64,000 bases of DNA, taken from NCBI RefSeq assembly GCF_001724605.1, contig NZ_MEEX01000001.1, positions 132,295 to 196,294 of the forward strand. The letters are read 5' to 3'. How positions within the stretch are numbered: the first letter of the stretch is position 1; each line of letters opens with the position of its first letter. The stretch is from Phenylobacterium sp. SCN 70-31. Lineage in GTDB: Bacteria > Pseudomonadota > Alphaproteobacteria > Caulobacterales > Caulobacteraceae. The notes under the pieces are model-generated. The model was not told where the DNA came from, made no database searches, and worked only from the letters and a program-made list of their open reading frames with translations. Below are positions 16,832-48,992 of the stretch, piece after piece. A program made the translations under genes and the position numbers.

Positions 16832-17461
16832 CCTGATCTTCTTCTCGATCGTGACGTCGGCCTTCTCGGCCTTCTTCCGCTGTTCGAAGACCCGGCGCAT
16901 GTGGCGGAGGTCGGCGTCGCCCAGGCGCTTCTCGGCCGCGACGAACTGTTCCTGCTCCTCCTCGCCGATGTGGTGCAGATATTCCGCCTTCAGCCCGGCG
17001 AAGCGCCGCAGCCACCCCGGCGAGCCCATGTCGCGGGCGGCGAGGTCCGCCAGCATGTCGTCGATCTCCTTGTGCTCGGCCACCGCGTGGCGCGCGAAGT
17101 CGGTCGTCGCGGGATCGCGCAGCACCGTCGACCACAGCGCCTGCTCCTCGGCGGCGGCGTGGGCCTTGAGTTCGCGGACCAGCTCGCGAAACAGTCTCTG
17201 CCGCGTATCCGAGTTTCCGTGGGTCTCCTCGATCATGGCCAGCAGCGCGCGGTGCCGGTCGTGATCCTCGACCAGGCGCCCGAAGACGTCGGGGTCGCCC
17301 CGGAACTTCGTCTTCGGCGTGCTGCCGAGGCGTACGGGCAGTTCAGGCGCCATGGCCTTGGCCTTCTCGACCGCGGCGCTCTTGGCCCGTTGCGCCCGGC
17401 CCGGCGCCCCCGAGGGCATGGCGGAGGGCTTTCGGGTGCGGGTCATCGTCTGGGCAGTCAT
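16820..17461 (-). CDS. Hemerythrin-domain protein
   Basis: His/Glu-rich four-helix pattern (HDRHRALL, HAAAEE, AVAEHKEID, LHHIGEEE). The start was trimmed to ATG 17461. The upstream part of track ORF 16820..18025 is shadow sequence. Confidence 0.75.
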   Translation of the reverse strand: MTAQTMTRTRKPSAMPSGAPGRAQRAKSAAVEKAKAMAPELPVRLGSTPKTKFRGDPDVFGRLVEDHDRHRALLAMIEETHGNSDTRQRLFRELVRELKAHAAAEEQALWSTVLRDPATTDFARHAVAEHKEIDDMLADLAARDMGSPGWLRRFAGLKAEYLHHIGEEEQEQFVAAEKRLGDADLRHMRRVFEQRKKAEKADVTIEKKIRLKD

Positions 17462-17637: not shown

Positions 17638-18891
17638 TCAGGCGTTGAGGTGGGCCGCGATCGCCTCGTAGGCCGGCAGGGACACCCGATCGAGTGGCCC
17701 GTTCCCGTTGGCGGCGGTCGGGTGGGAGGCGAAGCGGGCGATCACCATCTCGGCGCCCGGCGCCACGTAGCAGACCTGACCGTGGATCCCCCGCGCGGAA
17801 TAGGCCCCGAACCGGTTGTGGCTCACCCACCATTGGTTCCGGTAGCTCCAGCCCGGCAGGGTGACATAGCCAGCCTTGGCGAAGTCCTCCTTGCGGGCGC
17901 CGCCGGCGATGTCGTCGACGACCGCGCGCGGGACCACCTGCCGCCCGGCCACGGCGCCGCCCAGCCGCATCATCTCGCCGAAGCGCGCGAGATCGCGCGT
18001 GGTGACGTTCAGGCCGGCACCGCACAGCGCGAAGCCCGTGGAATCGACCATGACGTAGCCGTCTTCCTCCGCCCCCAGATTCCGCCAGATGCGCTCCGAC
18101 ACCAGTTCCGCGAACGGCTTGTCCGCCGCGCGCTGGACGATCCAGCCCAGCACCTCGGTGTTGCAGGTCTTGTAGGCGAAGGCCTCGCCATGCTCGCCCT
18201 GCTTCTGCAGCGTTCTCAGGAAATCGAAGATGGTCGTCGGTCCCGCATAGCCCTTGGGCGGCGGCGACCAGCCGGCGGCGACGCCGTAGAAGCGCACCTC
18301 GGCGTCTGGATCGACGTAGTCCTCCCGGTAGCGGACGCCCGTGGTCATATCCATGACGTGGCGCACGGTCGCGTCGCCGAACGCGCTTCCGGCGAGCTCG
18401 GGGACATATTCGGTCACCGGCGCGCCGGGGTCGATCGCCCCCTCATGCGCGAGGACAGCGGCGAGCAGGCCGGCGAACGACTTGGTCACCGACATGGCCA
18501 GGTGCGGGATGTGCGGCTGGAGCGCGCCGCGGTAGGTCTCGTAGACCACCGCCCCGCGGTGCAGGACCACGAGTCCGTCGGTGAACATCTCCTCGACGCT
18601 CTCGCCCCAGGTCGTCGGACGACCGTCCAGGGTGACGAACGGCACGGCGTCCAGATCGTCGCGCAGGCTGAGCGGCAGAACCGTGGCGGACGCCGGCCCG
18701 CGCCGGATGGCGGCGGATGGTCCCAGTTCGCGCTGGTGACTGAAGCTCCAGCGCGTGTTGGGGAAGCGCCAGCTCGTTGTGTCGACGGCCCGCACGGTCT
18801 TCTCGGGCGGCGGCGGGAAGCCCCGCATCACGGCGAGCGCGGCGGGATCGGTCGAGGCCGCGGTCGGGGCGGGTTGGACGGAGTCGGGCAT
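17638..18891 (-). CDS. Beta-lactamase-fold serine hydrolase (esterase / 6-aminohexanoate-dimer-hydrolase-like)
   Basis: SxxK nucleophile motif (MSVTKSF). A clear paralogue of 57211..58371, sharing VTEYVPE..GS....TVR....MT.GVR..EDY.DP.A.V. Confidence 0.8.
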   Translation of the reverse strand: MPDSVQPAPTAASTDPAALAVMRGFPPPPEKTVRAVDTTSWRFPNTRWSFSHQRELGPSAAIRRGPASATVLPLSLRDDLDAVPFVTLDGRPTTWGESVEEMFTDGLVVLHRGAVVYETYRGALQPHIPHLAMSVTKSFAGLLAAVLAHEGAIDPGAPVTEYVPELAGSAFGDATVRHVMDMTTGVRYREDYVDPDAEVRFYGVAAGWSPPPKGYAGPTTIFDFLRTLQKQGEHGEAFAYKTCNTEVLGWIVQRAADKPFAELVSERIWRNLGAEEDGYVMVDSTGFALCGAGLNVTTRDLARFGEMMRLGGAVAGRQVVPRAVVDDIAGGARKEDFAKAGYVTLPGWSYRNQWWVSHNRFGAYSARGIHGQVCYVAPGAEMVIARFASHPTAANGNGPLDRVSLPAYEAIAAHLNA

Positions 18892-19073
18892 GGCGGACGC
18901 CTCTGAGGACGGGAAGCCCCCATCCCATCCCCTTCCCGCCGGAACCGCAAGGCGGTCGCCACGTCAGGACGCGCCGAAGCCGTGGAGGGGGCCGTGGGGA
19001 GCGACGTAATGACGGCCCTGCTGCTCGCCGCAACCCGTATCCATCGACCTCGTCGCCGCGGCCTCTGCGCGGC

Positions 19074-21269
19074 TCATGCGCGGGTTCGGCCGGCGGACAG
19101 AAGCTCGTCCAGGACCTCCTCCGTATGCTCGCCGAGGATGGGCGCGGGCCTGAGCAGCGCCGGGCGGACACCGTCGTAGGCGAAGGGCGCCGCCGGGATG
19201 ACATGGCGGCCGACGTAGCGCCGCTCCATCTCGGGCCAGAAGCCGGCCTCGGCGAGTTGCGGCAGATAGGCCAGAACATCGCCTCGAAGCACGGGCGCGG
19301 CGGGGACGCCGGCCGACTGAAGCCGCCCGGCGGCGAACTCGGCGTCCTGCGGCGCGGCCCAGGACGCCAGCGCGGCCTCGATCGCATCGGCCCGCGCCGC
19401 CCGTCCCTCGACCCGCGACAACGTCGGATCGTCCGCCCAGTCGTCCCGGCCGAGGACGCCGCAGAGGGCGCGCCAGGCCCGGGGTCCGTCCACCGCCACG
19501 GCCAGCCAGCAATCCTCCCCGCCTGCGGCGACCACCGCTGTCGGCGCCGCTCGCGGCCGGCGGCTGCCGGTCCGGGGTAACGGCCCCTCGGTGAACTGCT
19601 GGGCGACGACGGCGTCCGCCGCGAACTGAAACAGGCAGGCGACCTGCGCGAGATCGATCTCTGCGCCGCCCGCACGCTCTCGGGCGTAGAGGGCCGAAAG
19701 TACGGCCGCCGCGGCGAAGAGTCCCGCGATCGGGTCGCCGAACGCCACATGCTGCAGGCAGGGCGCCCAGCCGTCGCAGCCGTTGACGAACGGCAGGCCC
19801 GACGCCTGCTCCACCGTCGAACCATAGGCGCGGATGCCCGACAGCGGCCCGCCGGCGCCGAAGGCGGGCATGGAGACCGCCACCAGTCCGGGGTTCAGCT
19901 CGCGCCGGACGGCGCTGCCCAGCCCGAGCTTGTCCATGACGCCGGCCGCGAAATTCTCGACCACGACATCGGCGCCCGCCACCAGTTCCCTGGCCTTCGA
20001 GACTCCGTCGGGGGTCAGCAGATCGAGAACCACGCCCCGCTTGTTGCGGTTCATCGAGATGAAGCTGAATTTCGTCTCGCGCGGGGGCGGATCGCCCGCC
20101 TCGTCCGCCTCCCATCCGCGCCACCAGTCCGGATGGCTCTCGGATTCGATCTTCACCACGTCGGCTCCCAGATCGCCGAGGGTGCGCGCGCAGAGGGGGC
20201 CGGCCCAGCCCATGGAGAAGTCGACCACGCGCACCCCGCGCAGAGGCGCCTGCGGCGGGCCGGATTCCAACGCCGGAGCCGCCCCCCCGAACATCATCCG
20301 CCAGGGAAGATTGGGCGCGGTGATCTCGCCTTCGCCGAAGGGACCGAAGGCGCCGCGCTCGGCCCAGTGGTCCACCTTCGGCAGTTCGGCGAGATCGGGC
20401 ATGGGCGTCGCCGGAATCCGCGCCGCATCCGACAGCGCGACCCACTCGGCGGTGGAGCGGGCGAGGAACAGCGGGGCGAGCAAGGCGTCGATCTCGTCGG
20501 CGGCCAGCAGGCGCTCGACCGTGGTTGCGAAGCGCGGCGCCTCGGCCAGCTCCGGGCGGCCCAATATGCCGCACAGGCCCTTCCATTGGGCGGGCGTCAG
20601 CGTCGAGACCCCAAGCCAGCCGTCGGCGGTGCGGTAGCTGGTGCAGGGATAGGTGGGGACGAAACGGTTCACCCCGAGGCGCACCGAACCGCCGCCTTCC
20701 ATCAACGCCGAGACGGCCCCCGTCTCGGTCAGGCACATGAAGGCCTCGAAGACATTCACGGACACACGACCGGGTCGAGGGTGGGCGAGGAGCGCGCCCA
20801 GCGCCGCGTTGAAGGCGGTGACGCCGGCCGTGATCTGCGGGCCATGTCCCTGCGACAGGATCGGCGGTCCGTCCTTCGGGCCGAACGGATAGGTGACGCC
20901 GGTCAGCGCCTGGATCAGTTCGTCGGTTCCCCGCCACTGCGTCCACGGACCTTCGGCATGGAACCAGGTCAGTTCGAGCAGGACGGCGTCCAGCCTGCCG
21001 GCCAGGGCGGCGGCCTCGACGAGGTCGGCCGGGTCCTGACCTCCGATGACGAGGTCGGCCGACGCGGGCGCGCCCGCGACCTTTCCCTGATCGAGCCAGC
21101 GGCCATAGGCGCGCCCGGCCTCACCCGCGTAGCCGATGGCGGCGTCGTCGCCGCCCGCTGCCCGCGTCACGGTGGCCCCGAGCCGGGCGAACAGCCGGCC
21201 GCAGTAGCGCACGGCCACACCGCGTGACGCTTCGACCACGACGAGCCCCTCGAGCAGTCGATGCATCAC
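19074..21269 (-). CDS. Tandem-domain family III (CaiB/BaiF/AMACR-type) CoA-transferase-like protein, 731 aa
   Basis: Two full family-III units are present. The second starts with the canonical LRGVRVVDFSMGWAGPLCARTLGDLGADVVKIE and ends with ILGEHTEEVL. The first starts with a degenerate LEGLVVVEASRGVAVRYCGRLFARLGATV. Confidence 0.85.
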   Translation of the reverse strand: MMHRLLEGLVVVEASRGVAVRYCGRLFARLGATVTRAAGGDDAAIGYAGEAGRAYGRWLDQGKVAGAPASADLVIGGQDPADLVEAAALAGRLDAVLLELTWFHAEGPWTQWRGTDELIQALTGVTYPFGPKDGPPILSQGHGPQITAGVTAFNAALGALLAHPRPGRVSVNVFEAFMCLTETGAVSALMEGGGSVRLGVNRFVPTYPCTSYRTADGWLGVSTLTPAQWKGLCGILGRPELAEAPRFATTVERLLAADEIDALLAPLFLARSTAEWVALSDAARIPATPMPDLAELPKVDHWAERGAFGPFGEGEITAPNLPWRMMFGGAAPALESGPPQAPLRGVRVVDFSMGWAGPLCARTLGDLGADVVKIESESHPDWWRGWEADEAGDPPPRETKFSFISMNRNKRGVVLDLLTPDGVSKARELVAGADVVVENFAAGVMDKLGLGSAVRRELNPGLVAVSMPAFGAGGPLSGIRAYGSTVEQASGLPFVNGCDGWAPCLQHVAFGDPIAGLFAAAAVLSALYARERAGGAEIDLAQVACLFQFAADAVVAQQFTEGPLPRTGSRRPRAAPTAVVAAGGEDCWLAVAVDGPRAWRALCGVLGRDDWADDPTLSRVEGRAARADAIEAALASWAAPQDAEFAAGRLQSAGVPAAPVLRGDVLAYLPQLAEAGFWPEMERRYVGRHVIPAAPFAYDGVRPALLRPAPILGEHTEEVLDELLSAGRTRA

Positions 21270-21312
21270 GGCCCTCCCAGAACGGTTGCGCGCTTTACAC
21301 CCTCCTGCTTAC

Positions 21313-21328
21313 TGGTAATGTGTTACCA
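21313..21328. promoter_or_regulatory. Island operator copy 1: TGGTAATGTGTTACCA
   Basis: Perfect 6+6 inverted repeat in the 83-bp divergent region between the CoA-transferase (start 21269) and PhyH-1 (start 21353). Confidence 0.7.
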
Positions 21329-21352
21329 ATACAATCGTGGAGGAACAGGCCC

Positions 21353-22195
21353 ATGTCGCTGGATGTCGATCGAGACCCCTATGCCGTTCCTGACGACCTC
21401 GCGGCCCGCATCGACGCGCTGGACCTGCGCCAGAACATCGTGGACCTGGTGGACCAGGGTTACACGGTCATCCGGGACCCAAAGGCCATCGCCCTTGCCG
21501 ACGAGGTGCGGGAGGCGATCATCCGCTGCGTGCCCGCCGCCCCCGAGGCGAAGGCGCCGACCCGCTTCACCCTGCTCGATCAGGACCCGGTGTTCGCCGA
21601 GGCGATCACCACCCCGAAACTGCTGGCGCTGGTGGAATACCTGCTGGGTCGCGGGGCGCTGTTCTCGCAGCTTTCGGGTTCACGCCGCCGGCCGGGGCCT
21701 CAGTCCCTGGGACTGCACGCGGACAACAGCTGGTTCCCCGCCCCCTTTCCCGACTGGGAGATCATGGCGACCGGCTGCTTCGTCACCGACGAATTCACCG
21801 AGGAATCCGGCGCCACCCTGGTGATCCCGGGCACCCACAAGCTGAAGGACCATCCGCCGAAGGAACGGCGGGAAAGTCTGGAGGGCGCGGTTCCCATCGT
21901 GGCGCCCAAGGGCTCCATCTGCCTGTGGAACGGTTCGGTCTGGCACGGCAACTATCCCCGGCGGCTTCCCGGCGAGCGCGTCGTCCTCCACATGACCTAC
22001 ACCCGCGTCGGAATGCAGCCGATCGAGACCTACGATCACCTGGACGAGACATGGTTCGCCGACAAGGACCCGGCGCTCCCCACCCTGCTCGGCCGCCACA
22101 ACTTCCTCGGCCGCCGTCACGGCTGGAAGCAGAACGATCGCGAGCTTCTGAAGGAGACCTACCAGCAGGTGCACGGCCCGGGGTTCCGGGCCTGA
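21353..22195 (+). CDS. PhyH-family (phytanoyl-CoA dioxygenase-like) Fe(II)/2-oxoglutarate dioxygenase 1
   Basis: HxD...H facial triad context (LGLHADNSWFP, GSVWHGNYPR). GGAGGA RBS before ATG 21353. About 60 % identical by eye to 23543..24382. Confidence 0.8.
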   Translation: MSLDVDRDPYAVPDDLAARIDALDLRQNIVDLVDQGYTVIRDPKAIALADEVREAIIRCVPAAPEAKAPTRFTLLDQDPVFAEAITTPKLLALVEYLLGRGALFSQLSGSRRRPGPQSLGLHADNSWFPAPFPDWEIMATGCFVTDEFTEESGATLVIPGTHKLKDHPPKERRESLEGAVPIVAPKGSICLWNGSVWHGNYPRRLPGERVVLHMTYTRVGMQPIETYDHLDETWFADKDPALPTLLGRHNFLGRRHGWKQNDRELLKETYQQVHGPGFRA

Positions 22196-22199
22196 GCCG

Positions 22200-22883
22200 T
22201 CAGGCGTCACCGCCGCCGAGAACCTCGCGCGTCGGCGCCTGGAAATCCAGAAGCTGGTCCTGATAGCGCTTTGCACGGTCGCGCAGACGCGCGGCGTGAG
22301 GCTCGGTCGCGACGCCGGCCAGGATGACCGCCCACCCGAAGCCGATGCGTGGCTCGACGTAGCTGATGTCGTAGGTGCTGCTGGCCCAGGTGCGGACATT
22401 GGCCGCAAAGATGTCCATCAGCGTCTCGGAAAGCACCCGGGTGTCGATGTCGTCGTCCAGCATCCCCGCCCGGTACGCCCGACGCATGGCGGCCTCGAAT
22501 CGCTCGGGATTCTCGCGACCGGGCTCGGTCTCGGAGCCACCGGAATAGGCGTGGGTCGCGCGGAACAGCGCCCGGTAGAAAGGCTGGTTCTCGGCGTAGA
22601 ATGCGACGCCGACGGTCAGCGTCGCGAAGAAGAAGTCGAACACGTCGGTGTCGCCGATCGGCCAGAGGCGCGTCTGGAAGATCGCCTGCTCTTCCTTGAG
22701 CAGCGCCCGGATGATGCCGACCTTCGAACCGAACAGCTCATAGGGGGTGCGCAGGCTCACCTGTCCCCGCGCCGCCAGCTCGCGCATGGACAGCTCGAAG
22801 CCACCACTTTCCCGGATGATCTCGCGCGCCACCCTGAGGATGCGCGTCGACCGATCCTCGGTCGATTTCCTTGATGCTTCCAT
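22200..22883 (-). CDS. TetR/AcrR-family transcriptional regulator
   Basis: N-terminal HTH (ILRVAREIIRESGGFELSMRELAARGQVSLRTPYELFGSK). 227 aa. Confidence 0.9.
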   Translation of the reverse strand: MEASRKSTEDRSTRILRVAREIIRESGGFELSMRELAARGQVSLRTPYELFGSKVGIIRALLKEEQAIFQTRLWPIGDTDVFDFFFATLTVGVAFYAENQPFYRALFRATHAYSGGSETEPGRENPERFEAAMRRAYRAGMLDDDIDTRVLSETLMDIFAANVRTWASSTYDISYVEPRIGFGWAVILAGVATEPHAARLRDRAKRYQDQLLDFQAPTREVLGGGDA

Positions 22884-22997
22884 GAAGCCTTTTACTTCTC
22901 ACCCTACAGTCGGCCGCGGAAAACCCGCCGCCGCCATCATTCCCTGCGCGACGCAACCATGACCTGCAAAGGATCGGCAAGCTACGTTGACCGAGAT

Positions 22998-23013
22998 TGG
23001 TAACGAGTTATCA
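22998..23013. promoter_or_regulatory. Island operator copy 2: TGGTAACGAGTTATCA
   Basis: Lies in the divergent tetR / SCP2-like intergenic region, 4 bp upstream of ATG 23017. Confidence 0.65.
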
Positions 23014-23016
23014 TTC

Positions 23017-23484
23017 ATGCGTACAGAGGCTCGAAGGTTCCGCGCGGCGGAAGGAAACGCATTGACCGACATCACGGACACGAAACTCGCCTTCGCCGGA
23101 CCGGAATGGATCGCCGCAGCCGAAGCCATCCTTGAGGACCTCGCGGCGACACATGGCGAAGCGGGCCAGCGCTTCAGCCTGTGCGAGCGATTCACGGACG
23201 CCCCGGTCGAAATCTCGCCCTCCGGCCTCGCCGCGTGGTGGTTCCGGCTGGACGGCCAGACGGTCGAGGTGGGCGCCGGCGAGATCGGCGACGCCGATGC
23301 GACCGTGACAGCCGACTACGTCGCCACCCTGCCCGTCGCGCGACTGGTCTACACGCCCGAGGTCATCGCCGAGCGCCGGGCCAAGCGCGAGCGAGGCGAA
23401 CTTCCCAGCCAGCAAGGCGACTGGTCGCGCGCCCCGCGGTGGCTGACCGAACTCCACAACCGGCTGGCGGTCATCACCGCCTGA
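23017..23484 (+). CDS. SCP2 (sterol-carrier-protein-2)-like lipid/acyl-CoA binding domain protein
   Basis: 155 aa. The pattern PEWIAAAEAIL...FRLDG..VEVG.GE...ADATVTADY...ARLVY resembles SCP2-fold proteins. Paralogue of 58463..58897. Confidence 0.55.
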   Translation: MRTEARRFRAAEGNALTDITDTKLAFAGPEWIAAAEAILEDLAATHGEAGQRFSLCERFTDAPVEISPSGLAAWWFRLDGQTVEVGAGEIGDADATVTADYVATLPVARLVYTPEVIAERRAKRERGELPSQQGDWSRAPRWLTELHNRLAVITA

Positions 23485-23542
23485 TCTGGCCCCCGTCCGG
23501 GCGCGCGCACCGCCGCCCGGACGCAAGTTCCGGCTCGCCGGC

Positions 23543-24382
23543 CTACGGCTTGCCGCTGCGGGCGATGCGCTGGGTGTAGCGCAGCTTCACCGGATCGGCG
23601 CCCCCGCTCTCCACGGTCGTCGCGCCGAGGAACAGCTTGCGGCCCAGGAGGTCGGCGATCCCTTCGGGCTGGCTGGCGACCCAGGCGTCGTCCAGATGGC
23701 TGTAATCCTCGACCGGCGCGAACCCGACGCGGGTGTAGGTCATGTGCATCACCACGCGGTCGCCGGGAATCTCGCGCGGGTAGTTGCCGTGCCACACCGA
23801 GCCGTCCCAGAGGCAGAGCGATCCTTTGGGCGCCACGATCGGCACCATCCCTTCCTGGATGCGGCACTCCTCCTCGCTGGGATGGCGCTTGAGGACGTGG
23901 GTTCCCGGGATGATGGAGGTGCAGCCTCCTTCCTTGGTGAACTCGTCCGTCACCCAGCATGCCGTCGCCATGATCTCCCAGTTCGGGAACGGCGCGGGGA
24001 ACCAGCTGTTGTCGGCATGCAGCACCAACGGCGCCGCGCCTTCGCCGCGGATCGAACTGGTGAGCTGGCTGAGGATCGCGCCGCGTCCCACCAGGAACTC
24101 CACCAAGGCCAGAAGCCGGGGCACCAGGACCGCTTCCGAAAACACCGGGTCCCGCCCCAGCAGAAGGGCGGCGCTCTGGCCGGTGCGCGGCGGTCCCGTC
24201 TCCTCGGCCAGGCGCACGATCGCTTCGCGCACCCGATCGGTCAGGGCGTGCGCCACCGGATCCTGGATGATCGTGTAGCCCTGATCGACCAGTTCGCGGA
24301 CGTTTTCCCGGAGGCCCAGCGCGTCGATCTTCGGCGCCAGGAACTCGGGAACTTCATAGGGGTCGGCAGTGTCGAGCGGCAT
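23543..24382 (-). CDS. PhyH-family Fe(II)/2-oxoglutarate dioxygenase 2
   Basis: LVLHADNSWFPAPFPNWEIMAT, GSVWHGNYPR. Start trimmed to ATG 24382. The track ORF extends to 24895 as shadow sequence. Confidence 0.8.
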   Translation of the reverse strand: MPLDTADPYEVPEFLAPKIDALGLRENVRELVDQGYTIIQDPVAHALTDRVREAIVRLAEETGPPRTGQSAALLLGRDPVFSEAVLVPRLLALVEFLVGRGAILSQLTSSIRGEGAAPLVLHADNSWFPAPFPNWEIMATACWVTDEFTKEGGCTSIIPGTHVLKRHPSEEECRIQEGMVPIVAPKGSLCLWDGSVWHGNYPREIPGDRVVMHMTYTRVGFAPVEDYSHLDDAWVASQPEGIADLLGRKLFLGATTVESGGADPVKLRYTQRIARSGKP

Positions 24383-24418
24383 TTGAGGGTTCCCCGGAAT
24401 CCGTTCGTTGCATTGGGT

Positions 24419-24434
24419 TGGTAACGCGTTATCA
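24419..24434. promoter_or_regulatory. Island operator copy 3: TGGTAACGCGTTATCA
   Basis: Lies in the divergent region between PhyH-2 (start 24382) and CoA-transferase-2 (start 24488). Confidence 0.65.
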
Positions 24435-24487
24435 TCCTGCGCAACGGCGGCGTCAAGCAACGGCTGCCGACACACCGGGAGGTTGCT

Positions 24488-26731: not shown

Positions 26732-26810
26732 CCACGTCTCTAGCGCGAAGGCCCCCCGAAGACTGGCGGAAATGTGGGAAGAGTTCGGCGAAGGATTTGG
26801 CGAAGGATTC

Positions 26811-26832
26811 TGGGCGACCCCGAGGTCGCCCA
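26811..26832. terminator. GC-rich hairpin (TGGGCGACC-ccga-GGTCGCCCA) between convergent genes
   Basis: 9-bp stem with a 4-nt loop, preceded by the 12-bp tandem ggcgaaggattt/ggcgaaggattc. No clear U-tract on either strand. Confidence 0.4.
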
Positions 26833-26847
26833 GGCGCGCCGCGCATG

Positions 26848-27738: not shown

Positions 27739-27764
27739 GGTCTGGTCTCCTTCCTCTCGGGCGG

Positions 27765-30317: not shown

Positions 30318-30384
30318 GAATTCCCCCTCTGGTTGTCGCCACCCCAGCCTTCTGGACGCCTGTCTGAAGTCCTGGCTCGCTGAG

Positions 30385-30423
30385 TGGTAACGTGTTTTAT
30401 TGCCCGAAGGTAACGCGTTATTC
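30385..30423. promoter_or_regulatory. Island operator copies 4a (TGGTAACGTGTTTTAT) and 4b (AGGTAACGCGTTATTC)
   Basis: Two adjacent sites, 30385..30400 and 30408..30423, with centres 23 bp apart. They lie in the divergent TonB-receptor / acyl-CoA-synthetase region. The right half-sites are degenerate. Confidence 0.55.
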
Positions 30424-30479
30424 CCGGGTAGGCAAGGCGTTGAAAAGCCGTCTGCCCCGACGCCCCTTGAGGAGGAAGC

Positions 30480-32102
30480 ATGCTCTCGGACAGAAAGATG
30501 GAGATGGCGAGGACGCCCGATGTGAGCCTCATCCGCACCCTCACGGAGAGGGCCGACTCCACCCCGGACAAGGCCTATGTCGTCGACATCGAAGGACGCA
30601 CGCTCACCTATGCCGAGACCGTGTCGGCGGCGCAGCGATGGGCCGGCGCCTGGCGGCGCGCGGGCGTGTCGGCGGGCGACCACGTGGTCACCATGCAGTA
30701 CAACACCATCGAGTCCCTTCTGGGCTGGTTGGGACTGGCCTGGCTCGGGGCCGTCGAGGCGCCGGTCAACACCGACTACCGCAGCGACCTTCTGGCCCAC
30801 GCCCTCAACCTGACCCGGGCCCGGGTGGTGCTCGTCCTGGACCGGTTCCTCGATCGGATCGCCGAGGTGGCCGACCGGCTGGAGCATCTTCGCGCCATCG
30901 TGGTGATCGACGGTCCGGCCCGACCCTGCGCGGACTTCGAGGTCACGGCCGGCGAGGCCTTCCTCGCCGGAGCCGAAGCGCCAACAGACCTGGAGATCCC
31001 AGCGCCTTGGGACATCATGAACGTGCTCTTCACCTCGGGCACCACGGGGCCGTCCAAGGCCGTCCGCCTGCCCTGGGCCCAGATGCACGCGATGGTGACG
31101 GGATCGTTCCGGATCGAGGACTTCGGGCCCGACGAGGTCGTCTACAACGCCGGCCCGACCTACCATGTCGGCGCCAAGGTGTTCCCTTACCTGGCGGCGC
31201 TCTGCGGCGGCCGACACCTGATGCGTCCCTTCATCAGCCGCAGCGCCGTGGCCTCGGAATATCTGCAGTTCGGCGTCACCGTCGGCGGCGTGGTCCATGA
31301 CTGGCTGGCCGAGCCCGAGCAGCCCGACGATGCGCAAAGGCCGCTGAAATTCCTGCTCACCCCCTACCGCGACCCCGCGGCCGAGCCGTTCGCGCGCCGG
31401 TTCGGCTGCCGGCGCTTTGGCGTGTTCAACATGACCGAGGTCAGTTCGCCCATCCAGTTCCGGGACTGGGACGCCGCCGTCCACGACGAGGCGGGTCGGA
31501 TGAGCTGCGGCGTTCTTCGGGAGGGTTATGACGCGCGCATCGTCGATGCGCACGACCAGCCCGTACCGGACGGCCAGCCCGGCGAGCTGATCGTCCGCGC
31601 CGACCGTCCCTGGGTGATGAACGCGGGCTACCTCAACAATCCCGAGGCCACCGCGGAAGCCTGGCGCAACGGCTGGTTCCACACGGGCGACGCCATGTAC
31701 CGCGACGCCGACGGCAACTTCTTCTTCCTCGACCGGATCAAGGACGCCATCCGCCGGCGTGGCGAGAACATCTCCAGCTTCGAGGTCGAGGCCTACGTCA
31801 ACGCGCATCCCGCGGTGGCGCTCTCGGCCGCGGTCGCGGTGAAGAAGAACGAGCACGCCGGCGCCGACGAGGAGATCAAGATCGTGGTCCAGCGCGTCGC
31901 CGGACAATCGCTCTCGGCCGAGGACCTGATCCGCTGGCTCATTCCGCGGATGCCGCGCTTCATGACGCCGCGCTATGTGGCGTTCATGGACGCCCTGCCC
32001 CTCACGCCCACCCAGAAGGTGCGCAAGAAGGTGCTGCGGGAGGCGGGCCTCGGCCCCGATGTCTGGGACCGCGAGGCCGCCGGGATCGAAATCCCCCGCT
32101 GA
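30480..32102 (+). CDS. AMP-dependent acyl-CoA synthetase/ligase
   Basis: AMP-binding motif LFTSGTTGPSKAV. Also WFHTGD and the RIKDAIRRRGENIS C-terminal domain. GAGGAGGA RBS. Confidence 0.9.
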   Translation: MLSDRKMEMARTPDVSLIRTLTERADSTPDKAYVVDIEGRTLTYAETVSAAQRWAGAWRRAGVSAGDHVVTMQYNTIESLLGWLGLAWLGAVEAPVNTDYRSDLLAHALNLTRARVVLVLDRFLDRIAEVADRLEHLRAIVVIDGPARPCADFEVTAGEAFLAGAEAPTDLEIPAPWDIMNVLFTSGTTGPSKAVRLPWAQMHAMVTGSFRIEDFGPDEVVYNAGPTYHVGAKVFPYLAALCGGRHLMRPFISRSAVASEYLQFGVTVGGVVHDWLAEPEQPDDAQRPLKFLLTPYRDPAAEPFARRFGCRRFGVFNMTEVSSPIQFRDWDAAVHDEAGRMSCGVLREGYDARIVDAHDQPVPDGQPGELIVRADRPWVMNAGYLNNPEATAEAWRNGWFHTGDAMYRDADGNFFFLDRIKDAIRRRGENISSFEVEAYVNAHPAVALSAAVAVKKNEHAGADEEIKIVVQRVAGQSLSAEDLIRWLIPRMPRFMTPRYVAFMDALPLTPTQKVRKKVLREAGLGPDVWDREAAGIEIPR

Positions 32103-32150
32103 GACCGACCGGGCGCGAGGCGGGGGCGCCCGCCTCGGCATGCCGACTCT

Positions 32151-35100
32151 TCACCAGGTGTCGATGAACGGCCGCTTCTTGCCCTCGCGTCGGGGGATCG
32201 GCGTGCTTTCGAGACCGGCGACGATCCATGTCCGCGTCTCGGCCGGGTCGATCACGTCGTCGAAGTCGAAGCCCATGGCCACGTTCAGGGCCTTGCCCTG
32301 CTCGTAGGCGTTGGTCACCATCTTCTGGAAGGCGGCCTCGCGTTCCTCCGGGTCGGCGATGGCTTCCAGTTCCTTGCGGTAGCCCAGCTTCACGGAACCC
32401 TCCAGGTTCATGCCGCCGAACTCGCCGCTCGGCCAGGCGATCGTGAAGAACGAAGCGTGCGAGCACCCGCCGGCCATGGCGAGGATGCCCAGGCCGTACC
32501 CCTTGCGCAGCACGATGGTGAACACAGGCACCGTCAGGTTGGGGCCCGTCACGAACATCCGGCAGCAGTGGCGGATCAGCCCGGTCTTCTCGGCCTCGGG
32601 TCCCACCATGTTGCCGGGCGTATCGGCCAGCACCACCAGGGGAATATCGAAGGCGTCGCAGAGCTGCATGAAGCGGGCGGCCTTGTCGGCGGCCTCCGAG
32701 TCCACGGCGCCGCCCAGGTGCGCCGGATTGTTCGCGATGATCCCGACCGGCCGGCCTTCGATCCGCGCAAGGGCGGTGACCATGCCCAGTCCGAACCCCT
32801 TGCGCAGTTCCAGCACCGTTCCTTCGTCGGCCAGCGTCTCGATCACCTCGCGGATGTCGTAGACGCGCACCCGGTTCTCAGGGATGAGGTGGCGCAGTCG
32901 CCGCTGGTCGGCGCACGACCACGTCGGCAGCCGTCCCTGGAAGTACGACAGATAGCGCTTGGCCGCCTCGACCGCCTCGGCCTCGTCGCGGACCACGATA
33001 TCGACGACCCCGCCCGGAACCTGCACCGAGAGCGGCCCCACCTCGTCCGGGGTATAGACACCCAGCCCGCCGCCCTCGATCACGGCCGGCCCACCGACCC
33101 CGATGGTGGAACCTTCGGTGGCGATGATGACGTCGCAACAGCCCAGCAGCACCGCCGCGCCGGCGAAACAGCGGCCGTTGGTGATCCCGATCTGGGGAAC
33201 CAGGGCGCTGAGGCGGCCTTGCAGCATGAACGCCTTCACGTTGAAGATGCCGCCGCCCGAGACGCGGTCGGTATCGCCGGGCCGCCCGCCGCCGCTCTCC
33301 GAGAAGTAGATGACCGGCAGCCGCCACTTTTCGGCCAGTTCGAACAGGCGGTCGGTCTTCTCGTGGTTCTTCATGCCCTGGGTGCCGGCCAGCACCATGT
33401 AGTCGTACGACATCACCACACAGCGGGACGCCTCAGGGCCGAAGATGTCGCCATTCACCCGGCCGACGCCGGTGACCATGCCGTCCGCCGGCGTCGTGCG
33501 GATGAGTTCCTCGACCGGATTGCGCAGCCGGCGCCCGGCGATCACCAGCCCCCCGTACTCCACGAACGAACCTGGGTCGCACAGGTCGTCCACATTCTCG
33601 CGCGCTGTGCGGAAGCCCAGCTTGCGCCGCTTGGCCACCGCCTCGGGTCGGGCGACGTCGAGCAGAAGGTCGTGCCGGTCGAGGACCTCGCGCAGGTCGG
33701 GGCGGACATGGTCGAGGTCGATGGCGTCGCCATCGTCGGCCGCCGTCTCGCCGAGGTCGGCCGGCTCCACGAACACCAGGCTCTGGCCTTCCGACACGGT
33801 GTCGCCCACCGCCACCGCATGGAGACGCACGACGCCATCGACGCCGGCGGCGACGAGGTGCTCCATCTTCATGGCCTCCAGCACCGCGACGGGCTCGTTC
33901 GCCCGGACCTCCGCGCCCACCGCGACGGCGAGGCTGACCACCGTTCCCTGAAGAGGCGCCTCGACCGCCTGGGTTCCGGGCGGCCCCGTCACGTCGGCCG
34001 CGCGAGTGTCGGCGGCGCCCGAGGCGTCCAGCTCGAAGTTCACCGAAGGCGCCGAAAGCTCCGCGGCGGCGGCCAGCTGGCCGGCCCGCGTCTCCATGAG
34101 CGCCGTGGTCCAATCCCCCGCCACGAAGACCGGATCGCGCAGGATGGCGCGCAGGAACGGGATGTTGGTCGGCGCGCCTTCGATCCGGAACTCGGCCAGC
34201 GCCCGGTCGGCGGCGCGATAGAGCGCGGCCTGGTCGCCTGCCGCATCGTGGACGATCACCTTGGCCAGCAGGGAATCGAACCGGACGCTGGTCGCGTATC
34301 CGGTGTAGCCGAAGCCATCCACGCGGACGCCGGCGCCCGACGGCGGCTCGTAGGCGGCCAGGACGCCGGCGGCCGGACGCGCCGTCCCGTCGTCGGCCAT
34401 CCGCTCCAGGTTCACCCGGGCCTGGACCGCGACGCCGCGCACAGGCGGCGGGCCATCGGCGAGACCCAGGTCGGCCAGGCTGCGCCCGCTGGCCACCGCG
34501 AGCTGGAGGTCTACGAGATCCAGGCCCGTCACCGCTTCGGTGACGGTATGCTCCACCTGGAGCCGGGCGTTGGCTTCGATGAAGGCGTGTCCGCCGCCCG
34601 GCTCCACCAGGAACTCGATCGTGCCGACCCCACGATAGCGCACCGCCCGACCCAGCTCGACCGCCGCCTCCAACAGCCGCAGCCGCACCGCCGGGTCCAG
34701 TCCTCGGGCGGGCGCCAGTTCGACGATCTTCTGGCGCTGGCGCTGGACGCTGCAGTCGCGATCCCACAGGTGGATGACCCGTCCCGAGCCATCGCCCAGA
34801 ATCTGCACCTCGATATGACGCGCGCGGGGCATCAGCCGTTCGACATAGAGGTCGCCGACACCGAAGGCCGACAGCGCTTCGGAGGCGCAGCGTTCATAGG
34901 CCGCCGCCAGGTCCTCGGGCCGCTCGACGGGCCGCATGCCTCGCCCGCCGCCGCCGGCCACAGCCTTGACCATCACGGCGCCGCCAGGTCCCAGGTCGCG
35001 CAGGAACGCAGCGGCCTCGGCAAGGCTCGTCGGCCCTTGTGTGCCGTCCAGGGTGGCGACGCCGCAATGGCGGGCGATCTGACGCGCCGCGGCCTTGTCG

Positions 35101-35435
35101 CCGAACGCGTCGAGGGTCTCGGGTTCCGGCCCCACGAAGGTGAGGCCGGCGTCTCGGCAGGCCCGCGCGAACGCCGCCGACTCGCTGAGGAAGCCGTAGC
35201 CGGGGTGGACGGCGTCGGCGCCGGCGGCCGCGGCCGCCGCAAGAACGCCCGCCGCATCCAGATATGCGGCCGGTCCGACGCCGCTGAGCGCCACGGCCTC
35301 GTCCGCCCGGCGCACATGCAGGGCGCGGGCGTCGTCCTCCGAGTGCACGGCGACGGTCGGGAGCCCCAGCCGCGCGGCCGTACGCGCGATGCGGATGGCG
35401 ATTTCGCCGCGATTGGCGATCAGAAGCTTTTCCAC
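32151..35435 (-). CDS. Single-chain acyl-CoA carboxylase (biotin carboxylase + BCCP + carboxyltransferase fused, LCC-like)
   Basis: N-terminal KLLIANRGEIAIRIART ATP-grasp biotin carboxylase, biotinylation motif EAMKMEH, and a C-terminal AccD/PccB-like carboxyltransferase (MVLAGTQGMKNHEK, SESGGGRP). GTG 35435 lies 7 nt after the MFS stop. The track start at 35501 is an alternative. Confidence 0.85.
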   Translation of the reverse strand: MEKLLIANRGEIAIRIARTAARLGLPTVAVHSEDDARALHVRRADEAVALSGVGPAAYLDAAGVLAAAAAAGADAVHPGYGFLSESAAFARACRDAGLTFVGPEPETLDAFGDKAAARQIARHCGVATLDGTQGPTSLAEAAAFLRDLGPGGAVMVKAVAGGGGRGMRPVERPEDLAAAYERCASEALSAFGVGDLYVERLMPRARHIEVQILGDGSGRVIHLWDRDCSVQRQRQKIVELAPARGLDPAVRLRLLEAAVELGRAVRYRGVGTIEFLVEPGGGHAFIEANARLQVEHTVTEAVTGLDLVDLQLAVASGRSLADLGLADGPPPVRGVAVQARVNLERMADDGTARPAAGVLAAYEPPSGAGVRVDGFGYTGYATSVRFDSLLAKVIVHDAAGDQAALYRAADRALAEFRIEGAPTNIPFLRAILRDPVFVAGDWTTALMETRAGQLAAAAELSAPSVNFELDASGAADTRAADVTGPPGTQAVEAPLQGTVVSLAVAVGAEVRANEPVAVLEAMKMEHLVAAGVDGVVRLHAVAVGDTVSEGQSLVFVEPADLGETAADDGDAIDLDHVRPDLREVLDRHDLLLDVARPEAVAKRRKLGFRTARENVDDLCDPGSFVEYGGLVIAGRRLRNPVEELIRTTPADGMVTGVGRVNGDIFGPEASRCVVMSYDYMVLAGTQGMKNHEKTDRLFELAEKWRLPVIYFSESGGGRPGDTDRVSGGGIFNVKAFMLQGRLSALVPQIGITNGRCFAGAAVLLGCCDVIIATEGSTIGVGGPAVIEGGGLGVYTPDEVGPLSVQVPGGVVDIVVRDEAEAVEAAKRYLSYFQGRLPTWSCADQRRLRHLIPENRVRVYDIREVIETLADEGTVLELRKGFGLGMVTALARIEGRPVGIIANNPAHLGGAVDSEAADKAARFMQLCDAFDIPLVVLADTPGNMVGPEAEKTGLIRHCCRMFVTGPNLTVPVFTIVLRKGYGLGILAMAGGCSHASFFTIAWPSGEFGGMNLEGSVKLGYRKELEAIADPEEREAAFQKMVTNAYEQGKALNVAMGFDFDDVIDPAETRTWIVAGLESTPIPRREGKKRPFIDTW

Positions 35436-35442
35436 GGAACCC

Positions 35443-36942
35443 CTACTGCCTTTGCATCGCCGCGCGTTCCTCGCGCTCCAGGTCGGCCAGGATTTCGGCA
35501 TGCCGCTGCCGGCTGAGCGGGTAGGCCCACATGATGCTCATCGAGATGCAGGTGAAGATCAGCATGGCCGGGCCGTAGAGAACGGCCAGTTGCACCGTGG
35601 CTTCGTGCGGCACGGCGTCGACCGGAACGCCCCGCGGAAACCGGATGACATCCAGCGCCACCCCCGCGATCGCGCCGCCGACGCCTAGCGAAGCCTTGCG
35701 CGTGAACGCGCTGGCGCCAAACAGGAAGCCCTCGGATCGCCCGCGGAACCGGTGATGATAGGCGTCGGCCACATCCGCCAGCATGGCGCCCGCCACCACG
35801 ACGGCCGGACCGCCGATGAAGCCCGATACGAAGGTGCTGGTCGCCAGGATGACGGTCAGCAGCCCCTTGTCCTCCAGCGGTATGACCCCCGCCAGCCCGA
35901 GGCCGATCGTTGCCGCCGGGACGATGACCGAAAAGACCACGCACGCCACATAGACCGGCTTCTTGTCGAACCGGTGCGCCAGCGCGCGGGCGATGAAGGC
36001 GCCGGCCATGAAACCGAAGACATTGGCCACCAGCACCATCTGGACGCCCGTCGGCGGCAGCCTCCAGAAGTAGGTGTTCAAGTGGATGTTCAGCGCCGCC
36101 TGCACGCCCCCCAGCACGTACGAGATCAGGATCGCGACGAAATAGATCGTGAACGCCTTCAGTCGGAACGCCGTGAGCAGGTTCCGGATCAGGCCCCCAC
36201 TGCCCATCGCCAGGCTGCCGTTCGCGGCGCCGCGCGCATATCCTTCCTGGGCGCGGCGCTGGGTGCCCAGAGCCGAGACGAAGATCACCACGATCACGAT
36301 GGCGCCGCAGAACAGCGCCAGGGGCTGGTAGGCCTCGGGATTGAGCTGGCCGTTCGGAAACGCTTCGGTGGGGCGGAAGAACAGGCTGAACGCAAGGCCC
36401 AGCACCGCCAGCCGCCCGATATAGGCGAACATCGCCCGATAGCCGCTGACCGACACCCGCTCCTTGAAGTCGCTGCTCAGTTCGGCGCCCAGAGCCATGT
36501 GGGGCACGAAGTAGAACGACTGCATCAACCGGCCCACCGCGGTGAATCCCAGCAGCCAGGCGAACAGGCCCCACTGGCCCAGCGTGTCCGGGGGGCTGAA
36601 GAGCAGGAACAGGCAGATCGCCAGCGGAACCGGCGCCAGGTAGAGGAACGGATGTCGCCGGCCCAGGCGGGATCGGAAGTTGTCCGAGATGTTGCCGATG
36701 ATCGGATCGGTGATCCCGTCAAACACCAGGGCGATCAGCAGGGCCAGCCCCGTGAGCGAGCCCGACAGGCCCACGACCTGGACATAGAAGAAGAACAGGA
36801 ACGTCTCGAGGGCGGCGGTCTTCACGCCCTCCGCCGCCTCGCCCAGGCCGTAGCTCAGCTTTGTGGCCAGGGGCAGGCGTCCTTCTCTCTCCGAAAGGTT
36901 CGCCGGCTTCGGGTCGCTCGCCGCCTCCACCACGCTCGCCAT
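35443..36942 (-). CDS. MFS/GPH-family permease
   Basis: 499 aa with about 12 TM helices. The N-terminal KLSYGLGEAAEG pattern is paralogous to 44480..45919. Start trimmed to ATG 36942. Confidence 0.8.
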   Translation of the reverse strand: MASVVEAASDPKPANLSEREGRLPLATKLSYGLGEAAEGVKTAALETFLFFFYVQVVGLSGSLTGLALLIALVFDGITDPIIGNISDNFRSRLGRRHPFLYLAPVPLAICLFLLFSPPDTLGQWGLFAWLLGFTAVGRLMQSFYFVPHMALGAELSSDFKERVSVSGYRAMFAYIGRLAVLGLAFSLFFRPTEAFPNGQLNPEAYQPLALFCGAIVIVVIFVSALGTQRRAQEGYARGAANGSLAMGSGGLIRNLLTAFRLKAFTIYFVAILISYVLGGVQAALNIHLNTYFWRLPPTGVQMVLVANVFGFMAGAFIARALAHRFDKKPVYVACVVFSVIVPAATIGLGLAGVIPLEDKGLLTVILATSTFVSGFIGGPAVVVAGAMLADVADAYHHRFRGRSEGFLFGASAFTRKASLGVGGAIAGVALDVIRFPRGVPVDAVPHEATVQLAVLYGPAMLIFTCISMSIMWAYPLSRQRHAEILADLEREERAAMQRQ

Positions 36943-36966
36943 GAAGATCCCCGCCCCATCTGTTGT

Positions 36967-36982
36967 TGGTAATTTGTTACCA
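36967..36982. promoter_or_regulatory. Island operator copy 5: TGGTAATTTGTTACCA
   Basis: Perfect 6+6 inverted repeat 25 bp upstream of the MFS start codon. Confidence 0.7.
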
Positions 36983-37146
36983 GTAACGCCGACCCCGAGG
37001 CGTCGGGTCAAGTGGAACCTGTCGGAGAACCGTCCCGCTCGGGCGCCGAAATGGGGCGGCTCCCTGGGGAAGAGCCGCCCGAAAGACGGAGACCATCGCC
37101 TCGCGTCCCTTGAGTTTCGCAACGGGGAGGAACGCCGCGCCCAGCT

Positions 37147-37162
37147 TGGTAACGAGTTATCT
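37147..37162. promoter_or_regulatory. Island operator copy 6: TGGTAACGAGTTATCT
   Basis: The first 15 of 16 positions are identical to copy 2. It lies 180 bp upstream of copy 5 and about 170 bp upstream of purC. Confidence 0.55.
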
Positions 37163-39562: not shown

Positions 39563-39620
39563 CGAAGCCTCCGCGAAGTCAGCCGGACGCGACGCGCATT
39601 GCGGCGTCGCCCGGACTGTG

Positions 39621-48985: not shown

Positions 48986-48992
48986 GGCCCGC

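Follow-up and report, generated by a model that had tools for sequence, protein, structure and literature searches.

Gene content and extent of the locus

The 64-kb window analysed here (the whole stretch of 64,000 nucleotides, positions 132,295 to 196,294 of contig NZ_MEEX01000001.1 from Phenylobacterium sp. SCN 70-31) contains an island of transport and catabolic genes held together by a palindromic operator. It encodes a TetR-family regulator, a TonB-dependent outer-membrane receptor (TBDR), a permease of the major facilitator superfamily (MFS), an AMP-forming acyl-CoA ligase, three PhyH-family Fe(II)/2-oxoglutarate (2OG) dioxygenases, a small SCP2-fold protein (U140), two fused family-III CoA-transferases (CoATs) and a single-chain carboxylase of LCC type (long-chain acyl-CoA carboxylase). 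We favor, with moderate confidence, the reading that this island is a TetR-repressed regulon for the uptake and catabolism of a scarce, probably hydrophobic carboxylic acid, built around a core of fused CoAT and LCC-type carboxylase.

Because G+C content is about 70% across the window, raw lists of open reading frames (ORFs) are full of spurious frames. Genes were picked by third-position G+C (GC3) and frame plots, backed by Pfam, and starts were set by reading the intergenic DNA, so that several deviate from the longest-ORF starts. Every gene of the initial annotation, which had been made from the letters alone, was recovered. The features of the locus, numbered from the first letter of the window, are as follows.

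17638-18891, minus strand: NylB-like beta-lactamase-fold serine hydrolase (PF00144, 124 bits); adjoins the island
19074-21269, minus strand: CoAT1, fused double family-III CoA-transferase, 731 aa (PF02515, 449 bits in two stretches)
21314-21327: operator O1 (GGTAATGTGTTACC), in the CoAT1/PhyH1 divergent promoter
21353-22195, plus strand: PhyH1, Fe(II)/2OG dioxygenase, 280 aa (PF05721, 56.7 bits); GGAGGA ribosome-binding site
22200-22883, minus strand: TetR-family repressor (predicted), 227 aa (TetR_N, 21.5 bits, E 2e-4)
22987-23014, plus strand: sigma-70-like promoter TTGACC-16-TATCAT, whose spacer and -10 contain operator O2 (22999-23012)
23062-23484, plus strand: U140, SCP2-fold protein, 140 aa; TTG start after a GGAAGGA ribosome-binding site; model with pLDDT (predicted local distance difference test) 92.7
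23543-24382, minus strand: PhyH2, PhyH-family dioxygenase, 279 aa (PF05721, 48.2 bits)
24420-24433: operator O3 (GGTAACGCGTTATC), in the PhyH2/CoAT2 divergent promoter
24488-26731, plus strand: CoAT2, fused double family-III CoA-transferase, 747 aa (PF02515, 455 bits)
26848-27738, minus strand: PhyH3, PhyH-family dioxygenase, 296 aa (PF05721, 59.1 bits); downstream of the TonB receptor
27765-30317, minus strand: TBDR, 850 aa, with Plug and barrel domains
30385-30422: divergent promoter of TBDR and ligase, with operators O4a (30385-30399, weak) and O4b (30409-30422)
30480-32102, plus strand: AMP-forming acyl-CoA ligase, 540 aa, with AMP-binding and AMP-binding_C domains
32151-35435, minus strand: single-chain LCC-type carboxylase, BC-BCCP-CT, 1094 aa; six Pfam domains in order; EAMKME
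35443-36942, minus strand: MFS_2/GPH-family inner-membrane permease, 499 aa (MFS_2, 235 bits); first gene of the MFS-LCC operon
36968-36981: operator O5 (GGTAATTTGTTACC), 26 nt upstream of the MFS start
37148-37161: operator O6 (GGTAACGAGTTATC), distal, in the interval from the MFS gene to purC

The extent of the island was judged against related loci, which are numbered with an L below and come from a CoAT-anchored scan of 185,579 species genomes (78 loci, against which all island proteins were run by tblastn) and from an independent scan of JGI metagenomes anchored on PhyH1/PhyH2. In L004 and L005, the nearest relatives (nucleotide identity 82-89%), synteny breaks off exactly at the CoAT1 stop codon. 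The beta-lactamase-fold gene beyond that point, which gives 246 bits to the 6-aminohexanoate-dimer hydrolase NylB, has no operator in the 182-nt gap between it and CoAT1, and tblastn found no homologue of it in L004, L005 or L019. The missing operator and the synteny stop therefore set the conserved island at about 19074-37161; of the extent given earlier, 17638-37162, the right edge approximately stands and the left edge does not. The esterase-like gene itself is present as annotated, and is probably a neighbour and not a member of the island. A reading in which it would act as the esterase of a first step was ruled out on the same two grounds, want of conservation and of an operator. Self-comparison also shows CoAT1-PhyH1 and PhyH2-CoAT2 to be an inverted paralogous duplication flanking the TetR and U140 genes.

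A shared operator and its predicted TetR-type regulator

The proposal that all promoters of the island carry the same operator is borne out. A search of the 64 kb for GRTAACNNGTTAYC, allowing a single mismatch, gives six sites against 0.02 expected, and all six (21314, 22999, 24420, 30409, 36968 and 37148) lie within the island's five promoter regions, with a weaker seventh site at 30385 as partner of the one at 30409. The operator is a near-perfect palindrome, GGTAAC-NN-GTTACC. In the TetR/U140 intergenic region, site 22999 lies inside the sigma-70-like promoter and covers its predicted -10 element, which would be the classical geometry for repression by occlusion.

The regulator scores slightly under the TetR_N gathering score of 24, and its PDB matches are exclusively TetR regulators, all of them remote (UidR and KstR, 21-28 bits) and not discriminating any substrate. 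Its N-terminal helix-turn-helix, and the palindrome in its own and four other promoter regions, point to a TetR-type protein. Orthologues 42-96% identical are encoded in every operator-carrying locus except L001. Conversely, the palindrome recurs in every related locus with a TetR orthologue, plus Sphingopyxis, standing at intergenic positions in L001, L004-L009, L086, L088-L090 and L105. The operator upstream of the CoAT gene is kept in L001, L002, L004-L008 and L019, and O1 and O4b are both conserved in L004, L005 and L019. The palindrome was not found in the loci that pair CoAT with LCC and lack this TetR (L010, L018, L023, L027, L042 and L050). Because the palindrome recurs with the TetR gene and is absent from such loci without it, co-regulation of the island genes as one regulon is, at the level of sequence, well supported.

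The outermost site, O6, is upstream of both neighbouring genes, 206 nt from the MFS start and 170 nt from purC. In a comparison of 22 nt that takes in the flanks, it shows 91% identity to the TetR/U140 site. Two GC-rich hairpins (36986-37080) separate it from the MFS-proximal operator. No ORF was found around O6 and the hairpins, and an Rfam scan of the whole window at gathering thresholds gave no match; O6 could act as a distal site for looping, or could belong to the promoter of a transcript that is not annotated.

Fused CoA-transferases coupled to a single-chain carboxylase

CoAT1 and CoAT2 are paralogues (48% identity in self-BLAST) of about 740 aa each, with two tandem family-III modules in one chain. 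The N-terminal half alone gives about 145-146 bits to PF02515, and the two halves of CoAT2 align with each other with an hhalign probability of 99.7%. The C-terminal half has the PF02515 fold and an invariant Gly-Asp-Pro, the Asp of which (Asp525 in CoAT2) is matched in the alignment to Asp169, the catalytic residue of the formyl-CoA transferase Frc, as expected of a family-III CoA-transferase, and the N-terminal half has an invariant Gln154 at the catalytic position. Because the Asp stands in the C-terminal half and a Gln in the N-terminal half, each chain is predicted to be a built-in pseudo-heterodimer with one active site, reminiscent of the two-subunit BbsEF.

The earlier assignment of both proteins to family III stands, and the link then drawn to alpha-methylacyl-CoA racemase does not. 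The CoATs score 140-155 bits against Frc, YfdW, YfdE, BbsF and SUGCT, as opposed to 64-67 bits against the racemases MCR and AMACR, and a racemase reading was ruled out by these scores together with the conserved Asp. With Frc/YfdW, YfdE, BbsEF and SUGCT they share the fold and the Asp of the covalent intermediate; they differ from these enzymes in fusing two modules per chain, in the Gln of the N-terminal module and in lying below NCBIfam equivalog cut-offs. CoAT2 is 100% identical to the NCBI entry 'CoA transferase [Phenylobacterium sp. SCN 70-31]', and a search of a plasmid collection with it returned only relatives at 30-39% identity with uninformative annotation. L004 and L005 have the CoAT1 gene; L019 lacks it.

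The carboxylase matches LCC (4RCN) over its full length with 1080 bits, joins biotin carboxylase (BC), biotin carboxyl carrier (BCCP) and carboxyltransferase (CT) domains in one chain, and carries the MKM biotinylation site within EAMKME; its GVT start lies 8 nt past the MFS stop codon. The CT domain scores 647 bits against LCC, 197-253 against 12S and PCC beta, 144 against the beta subunit of geranyl-CoA carboxylase (GCC) and, weakest, 119-143 against MCC beta. Such scores would place it in the alpha-carboxylating LCC/12S/PCC lineage. The initial annotation was right to see a single-chain LCC-type biotin carboxylase; its further argument from geranyl-CoA carboxylase is therefore not transferable, and a reading of the enzyme as a GCC analogue was ruled out, the CT domain being of another lineage.

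A comparison can be drawn with the Atu/Liu route, which proceeds through geranyl-CoA carboxylase. AtuR is a TetR regulator, and both systems have a biotin carboxylase in CoA-dependent catabolism under a repressor of TetR type. In the island, however, GCC and MCC beta are the most distant PDB relatives of the CT domain, and there is no hydratase or HMG-CoA-lyase-type gene; Atu/Liu, for its part, has no 2OG dioxygenases, TBDR or SCP2-fold protein.

Single-chain LCC has reportedly been known by structure and in-vitro kinetics since 2015 without a defined pathway. The enzyme of Tran et al. (2015) has the same BC-BCCP-CT order in a chain of ~1,100 aa, the same CT lineage and the same biotinylation motif, and, as quoted in PMC6491548, a Km 350-fold lower for palmitoyl-CoA than for acetyl-CoA. 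Unlike it, the island carboxylase sits in a TetR regulon with transporters and dioxygenases and is genetically coupled to a fused CoAT. Our literature searches found no description of LCC coupled to a fused family-III CoA-transferase and, PA1400 included, none that assigns to proteobacterial single-chain LCC a role other than "carbon and nitrogen metabolism".

This coupling extends well beyond Phenylobacterium. An LCC orthologue (at least 45% identity) lies within 10 kb in 43 of the 78 CoAT loci (55%), and in 30 the carboxylase gene comes directly downstream of the CoAT gene in the same orientation, the two being separated by -60 to +144 nt. The pair is spread over several phyla and occurs in Bradyrhizobium, Vineibacter, Acetobacteraceae, Xanthobacteraceae, Rhizobiaceae, Rubrivivax, Streptosporangiaceae and Acidimicrobiales, and its companions change by lineage: a GntR regulator with a Dpp/Opp-type ABC importer, or thiolase, enoyl-CoA hydratase or short-chain dehydrogenase/reductase (SDR) genes; in other Caulobacteraceae, pairs of acyl-CoA dehydrogenase (ACAD) genes, thiolase-like TLP1, enoyl-CoA hydratase and thiolase; and in sphingomonads, MFS_2 and PhyH genes. 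The companions change and the pair stays; thus the conserved functional unit appears to be CoA-transferase plus LCC, of which the Phenylobacterium island would be one elaboration.

Several variant arrangements were seen among the related loci. In L018, L050, L044, L061 and L077 (at about 4000-15700 in each; Bradyrhizobium, Vineibacter, Acetobacteraceae, Rhizobiaceae and Xanthobacteraceae) the fused CoAT and LCC genes are the last two of an operon that has a Dpp/Opp-type ABC importer, usually a divergent GntR/FCD gene, and no other enzyme. The Dpp-type binding protein of the Bradyrhizobium operon matched only generic peptide, opine and nickel binders, which do not discriminate a substrate. In L086 (12274-17551) the carboxylase is split into BC-like (44%) and CT-like (31%) pieces followed by a distant fused CoAT (38%), and TetR, MFS and PhyH genes and operator-like sites are retained. 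Two independent Sphingopyxis contigs have, directly after the fused CoAT gene, a gene for an anion exporter of the TauE/SafE family (L001, 12340-13101; L002, 2513-3274); it is not part of the Phenylobacterium island.

Conservation of the gene set

Co-occurrence of the genes across genomes, proposed earlier as a check on the island, was found in both scans. The set counted comprised TonB receptor, MFS permease, SCP2-fold protein, ligase, two PhyH types, CoAT, LCC and TetR, and it recurs, with its order kept or rearranged, in at least 13 loci of genomes or metagenomes that range from Caulobacterales to Sphingopyxis. Gene order is identical in three Phenylobacterium metagenome-assembled genomes (MAGs; L004, L005 and L019), and complete or near-complete, rearranged sets are found in L006-L009 (MAGs of other Caulobacterales and Alphaproteobacteria). 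The complete genome of Sphingopyxis sp. DBS4 (L001) has the arrangement MFS - SCP2-fold - LCC / ligase - PhyH - TBDR / CoAT, with identities of 58% (MFS), 30% (SCP2-fold), 64% (LCC), 41% (ligase), 61% (PhyH), 34% (TBDR) and 51% (CoAT). The JGI metagenome scan recovered the set again in L088, L089, L090 and L105, and part of it in L086 and L091.

The individual genes travel accordingly. TBDR orthologues or paralogues are found in all core loci, and the ligase has orthologues there at 41-92% identity. PhyH1 orthologues (72-88% identical) occur in L006-L009 and L019. PhyH2 orthologues (61-69%) adjoin the CoAT gene in L006-L008 and L019, and the L001 cluster has one too. PhyH3 is conserved in L004, L005 and L019, and relatives of it (34-35% identity) adjoin MFS/LCC in L010, L027 and L042. 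The SCP2-fold gene is present in all loci with an ordered or shuffled set except L009. Linkage kept despite this much shuffling is good evidence of common function.

These data bear on a reading in which there is no single pathway at all, and unrelated operons simply lie side by side under a shared global TetR-type regulator. It could appeal to a window dense with other TBDR-centred catabolic clusters, and to parts of the set that occur alone, such as PhyH2-type genes with a TBDR (L098 and L100), the SCP2-fold gene (L082) and CoAT in Zavarzinia (L003). We nevertheless hold it to be very improbable: the operator is confined to the island within the 64 kb, eight to nine families remain linked through rearrangements and across two orders, and a CoAT-LCC linkage of 55% is far above chance for a rare gene pair. 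The system is coherent, co-regulated, conserved and built from known families, in a combination that is apparently undescribed, as first supposed; searches of the accessible literature for the gene combination, and for fused family-III transferases beside carboxylases, returned no description.

PhyH dioxygenases and the proposed likeness to alpha-oxidation

PhyH1-3 all score above the PF05721 gathering cut-off of 22 bits (56.7, 48.2 and 59.1 bits, respectively), and the iron triad and 2OG-binding Arg (H122-x-D124, H198 and R209) are invariant. PhyH2 is 60% identical to PhyH1, and PhyH3 is ~32% identical to both. The AlphaFold2 model of PhyH1 (pLDDT 92.0) is a jelly-roll dioxygenase. Judged from these residues and scores, the three proteins are bona fide Fe/2OG dioxygenases, with a membership that holds at the level of the Pfam family only.

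Within that family, the specific kinship to phytanoyl-CoA 2-hydroxylase put forward in the initial annotation did not hold up. Against solved structures, PhyH1 gives 39 bits to KanJ, 38 to SptF and 18 (E 0.014) to human PHYH (2A1X), and the best PDB matches of PhyH3 are DhiD and PrhA. The top 50 Foldseek neighbours of the PhyH1 model, SptF, DhiD, FtmOx1, OkaE, TlxIJ, PrhA and AsqJ, are natural-product dioxygenases whose substrates are free and not bound to CoA; PHYH is missing from this group. In neither sequence nor structure, then, is PhyH1 closer to PHYH than to other PhyH enzymes. The nearest neighbours of PhyH1 and PhyH3 in sequence or structure (KanJ, SptF, PrhA, FtmOx1 and DhiD) have the same iron triad; they differ in that identity is only ~17-22%, and in that those enzymes are biosynthetic, whereas the island proteins belong to what would be an uptake and catabolic regulon.

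This result bears on the idea that the island does in bacteria what alpha-oxidation does in peroxisomes for 3-methyl-branched (phytanate-like or isoprenoid) acids, with a ligase, presentation by SCP2, hydroxylation at C2 by PhyH, racemase-like family-III proteins to set 2-methyl stereochemistry and a GCC-like carboxylase to cope with beta-methyl branches. The island does share PhyH and family-III proteins, a ligase and the SCP2 fold of U140 with the peroxisomal system (PHYH, SCP2, HACL1 and AMACR). Its ligase, family-III proteins and acyl-CoA carboxylase are present and co-regulated, its PhyH proteins fall in no subfamily with a known non-CoA substrate, and both co-regulation and co-conservation hold. 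However, no thiamine diphosphate (ThDP)-dependent 2-hydroxyacyl-CoA lyase of the HACL type and no aldehyde dehydrogenase were found in the island, among the scanned genes of the window or in the Pfam-annotated Sphingopyxis locus L001, a negative that does not extend to genes elsewhere in the genome. Human PHYH reaches less than half the KanJ and SptF scores and stays outside the top 50 structural neighbours, the CoATs keep the Frc-type Asp and score far above MCR/AMACR, and the CT domain looks alpha-carboxylating, with GCC and MCC beta at no more than 144 bits; an ATP-dependent carboxylase, central here, has no counterpart in peroxisomal alpha-oxidation. With PHYH distant, the CoATs transferase-like, the CT domain of PCC-like lineage and the lyase steps missing, the likeness is therefore one of family names and not of pathway logic, and the analogy to phytanate degradation is not supported. 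We regard it as improbable.

The SCP2-fold protein, transporters and ligase

The presence of an SCP2-like protein stands as far as its fold is concerned, and is marginal in sequence: U140 gives 14.6 bits (E 0.044) to PF02036, below the gathering score of 21.3. Its AlphaFold2 model, built from an alignment of 37 sequences, has Foldseek ranks 1-13 taken entirely by SCP2 proteins (UbiJ-SCP2, human and rabbit SCP2, mosquito SCP2-like and AF1534) at E 7e-5 to 8e-3 and probability 0.99-1.0, so that an SCP2 fold is supported by the model. The family is small, with 558 representatives in a set of 1.84 billion proteins, and most of its members stand alone at ~140 aa; a family profile found homologues in L001, L004-L008, L010, L016, L019, L088-L091 and L105.

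The TonB-dependent receptor, MFS permease and AMP-forming acyl-CoA synthetase are present by Pfam as originally listed. The receptor has Plug (45.5 bits) and barrel (93.4 bits) domains and an N-terminus that reads as a signal peptide. The MFS_2 permease has orthologues 58-97% identical, and an MFS_1 transporter takes its place in L007-L009, next to the TBDR gene or between CoAT and LCC, a swap that would be expected if the role of the transporter is simply import. For the ligase, the best NCBIfam match is PRK06155 (432 bits, below cut-off); it matches FadD5 and feruloyl-CoA, 4-coumarate and long-chain ligases about equally, and its substrate is not discriminated by these comparisons.

A proposed route and its alternatives

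The enzyme families with their catalytic residues, the geometry and conservation of the operator sites, the joint inheritance of the genes and the coupling of CoAT to LCC are demonstrated. The scheme that we infer, which takes in repression, the nature of the inducer, the order of the ligase, LCC, CoAT and PhyH steps, the regiochemistry of hydroxylation and the class of substrate, would run as follows. Without inducer, a TetR dimer would sit on GGTAAC-NN-GTTACC, overlapping the -10 element as at the U140 promoter, and block five transcription units (CoAT1 and PhyH1; U140; the divergent PhyH2 and CoAT2; TBDR-PhyH3 and the divergent ligase gene; and MFS-LCC). The compound would cross the outer membrane through the TBDR and the inner membrane through the MFS_2 permease, and the small SCP2-fold protein could solubilize it or hand it to the enzymes. 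The AMP-forming ligase would make a first CoA thioester, priming the pool, and the LCC-type enzyme would use ATP and bicarbonate to carboxylate the alpha-carbon, giving a substituted malonyl-CoA. CoAT, with one Asp site per chain, might then move CoA from the product to the next acid, or between two carboxyls, thereby saving ATP, while two to three PhyH proteins could hydroxylate an unactivated C-H, either on the substrate or on its CoA ester. The rest of the degradation would fall to housekeeping enzymes, of beta-oxidation or lyases, with genes elsewhere.

A hydrophobic substrate is supported by the SCP2 fold, by the preference of LCC for palmitoyl-CoA and by the company that the core pair keeps in other Caulobacteraceae (ACAD, TLP1, hydratase and thiolase). 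Of the import-and-degradation route first suggested, import and a CoA-dependent pathway for a hydrophobic carboxylate thus remain reasonable, and the phytanate specifics are unsupported.

A number of observations weigh against this scheme. In the NCBIfam scan none of the island proteins reaches an equivalog cut-off, and no dehydrogenase, hydratase, thiolase or lyase is encoded in the island, which therefore cannot by itself be a complete pathway. The TM-scores behind the SCP2 fold are modest (0.42-0.56), and a marine gammaproteobacterium (L082) has a member of the SCP2-fold family in unrelated surroundings. GPH-type MFS_2 permeases mostly carry glycosides. PhyH2-type genes (64-66% identity) occur without the rest of the set in L095, L098, L100 and L102. 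Finally, many taxa have the CoAT-LCC pair with only a GntR regulator and a Dpp/Opp-type ABC importer, company more in keeping with a small polar acid than with a lipid, so that the core pair may process a short product and not the imported molecule.

This last point leads to the main rival, in which the imported compound would not itself be carboxylated. The TBDR, permease, SCP2-fold protein and PhyH enzymes would handle a free, complex molecule, and the ligase, CoAT and LCC would process a short acid set free from it, which would receive CoA from succinyl-CoA or a similar donor and then be carboxylated to a malonyl- or methylmalonyl-type intermediate that feeds central metabolism. The nearest PhyH relatives do use free terpenoid or alkaloid scaffolds, the C-terminal half of CoAT is most like enzymes of small (di)carboxylates (Frc, YfdE, SUGCT and succinate-glutarate CoA-transferase), and operons of Bradyrhizobium, Vineibacter and Acetobacteraceae carry the pair with GntR and a Dpp-type importer only. 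In addition, LCC carboxylates C2-C4 acyl-CoAs as well, according to PMC6491548. Yet the island has no hydrolase or lyase to release such an acid, the NylB-like gene not being conserved; the conserved divergent PhyH2-CoAT pair suggests that both proteins act on the same molecule; and the SCP2-fold protein and the long-chain preference of LCC point to a lipid-like CoA ester. We consider it unlikely on balance, though it is the alternative that we take most seriously, and retain the regulon for a hydrophobic acid as the preferred reading.

It is tempting to speculate further that fused CoAT plus LCC is a widespread, unrecognized catabolic module of Alpha- and Betaproteobacteria and Actinobacteria, one that would give single-chain LCC its physiological role in ATP-driven alpha-carboxylation on a recycled CoA handle. 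In such a case, perhaps the Phenylobacterium and Sphingopyxis version, with 2OG dioxygenases and an SCP2-fold carrier, degrades a lipid-like acid that is refractory to beta-oxidation, as an alternative to alpha-oxidation and to the Atu-type route. This bolder generalization is, in our estimate, rather doubtful.

The main value of the locus would be a genetic handle on the physiology of single-chain LCC and on fused, pseudo-heterodimeric CoA-transferases, the link between the two supplying testable partners and candidate inducers for a role of LCC. The TetR protein and its palindromic operator would form a ready-made biosensor for substrate discovery, and genetics should be feasible because cultured carriers, Sphingopyxis sp. 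DBS4 and S. granuli NBRC 100800, have versions of the cluster. If the substrate proved to be a recalcitrant branched or cyclic lipid, the island would represent a new solution to a classic problem of lipid catabolism; at a minimum, it annotates the "hypothetical/CaiB/PhyH" genes that recur in soil and freshwater Alphaproteobacteria.

Other features of the window

The neighbourhoods of the Zavarzinia CoAT gene (L003) and of the gammaproteobacterial SCP2-fold homologue (L082) are unrelated to the island. Within the window, a third TBDR cluster on the minus strand (57211-63885) encodes a beta-lactamase-fold protein, a GFO/IDH/MocA oxidoreductase, an Amidohydro_2 protein and a TBDR running towards the window end, together with a single-domain family-III CoA-transferase (59935-61140); the island operator is in no promoter of this cluster. 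It is preceded, also on the minus strand, by a run of GFO/IDH/MocA oxidoreductases (51028-56435) with DUF6807 (52113-53294) and DUF993 (53042-54397) proteins. A second TBDR-centred cluster (39514-50390) comprises a MarR regulator, a 1092-aa TBDR, an IclR regulator, an MFS_2 permease, two aconitase-family proteins and an isopropylmalate/isocitrate-dehydrogenase-like protein, and may be a route for a branched tricarboxylate. A 444-aa ORF (38300-39634, minus strand) with favourable coding statistics (GC3 0.84) has no Pfam or NCBIfam match. On the left flank, a stretch of ~950 nt before the NylB-like hydrolase gene holds a hemerythrin-domain ORF (16820-17300, minus strand; PF01814, 59 bits), and a pyrroloquinoline quinone (PQQ) dehydrogenase gene (14273-16687) lies on the other side of that stretch.

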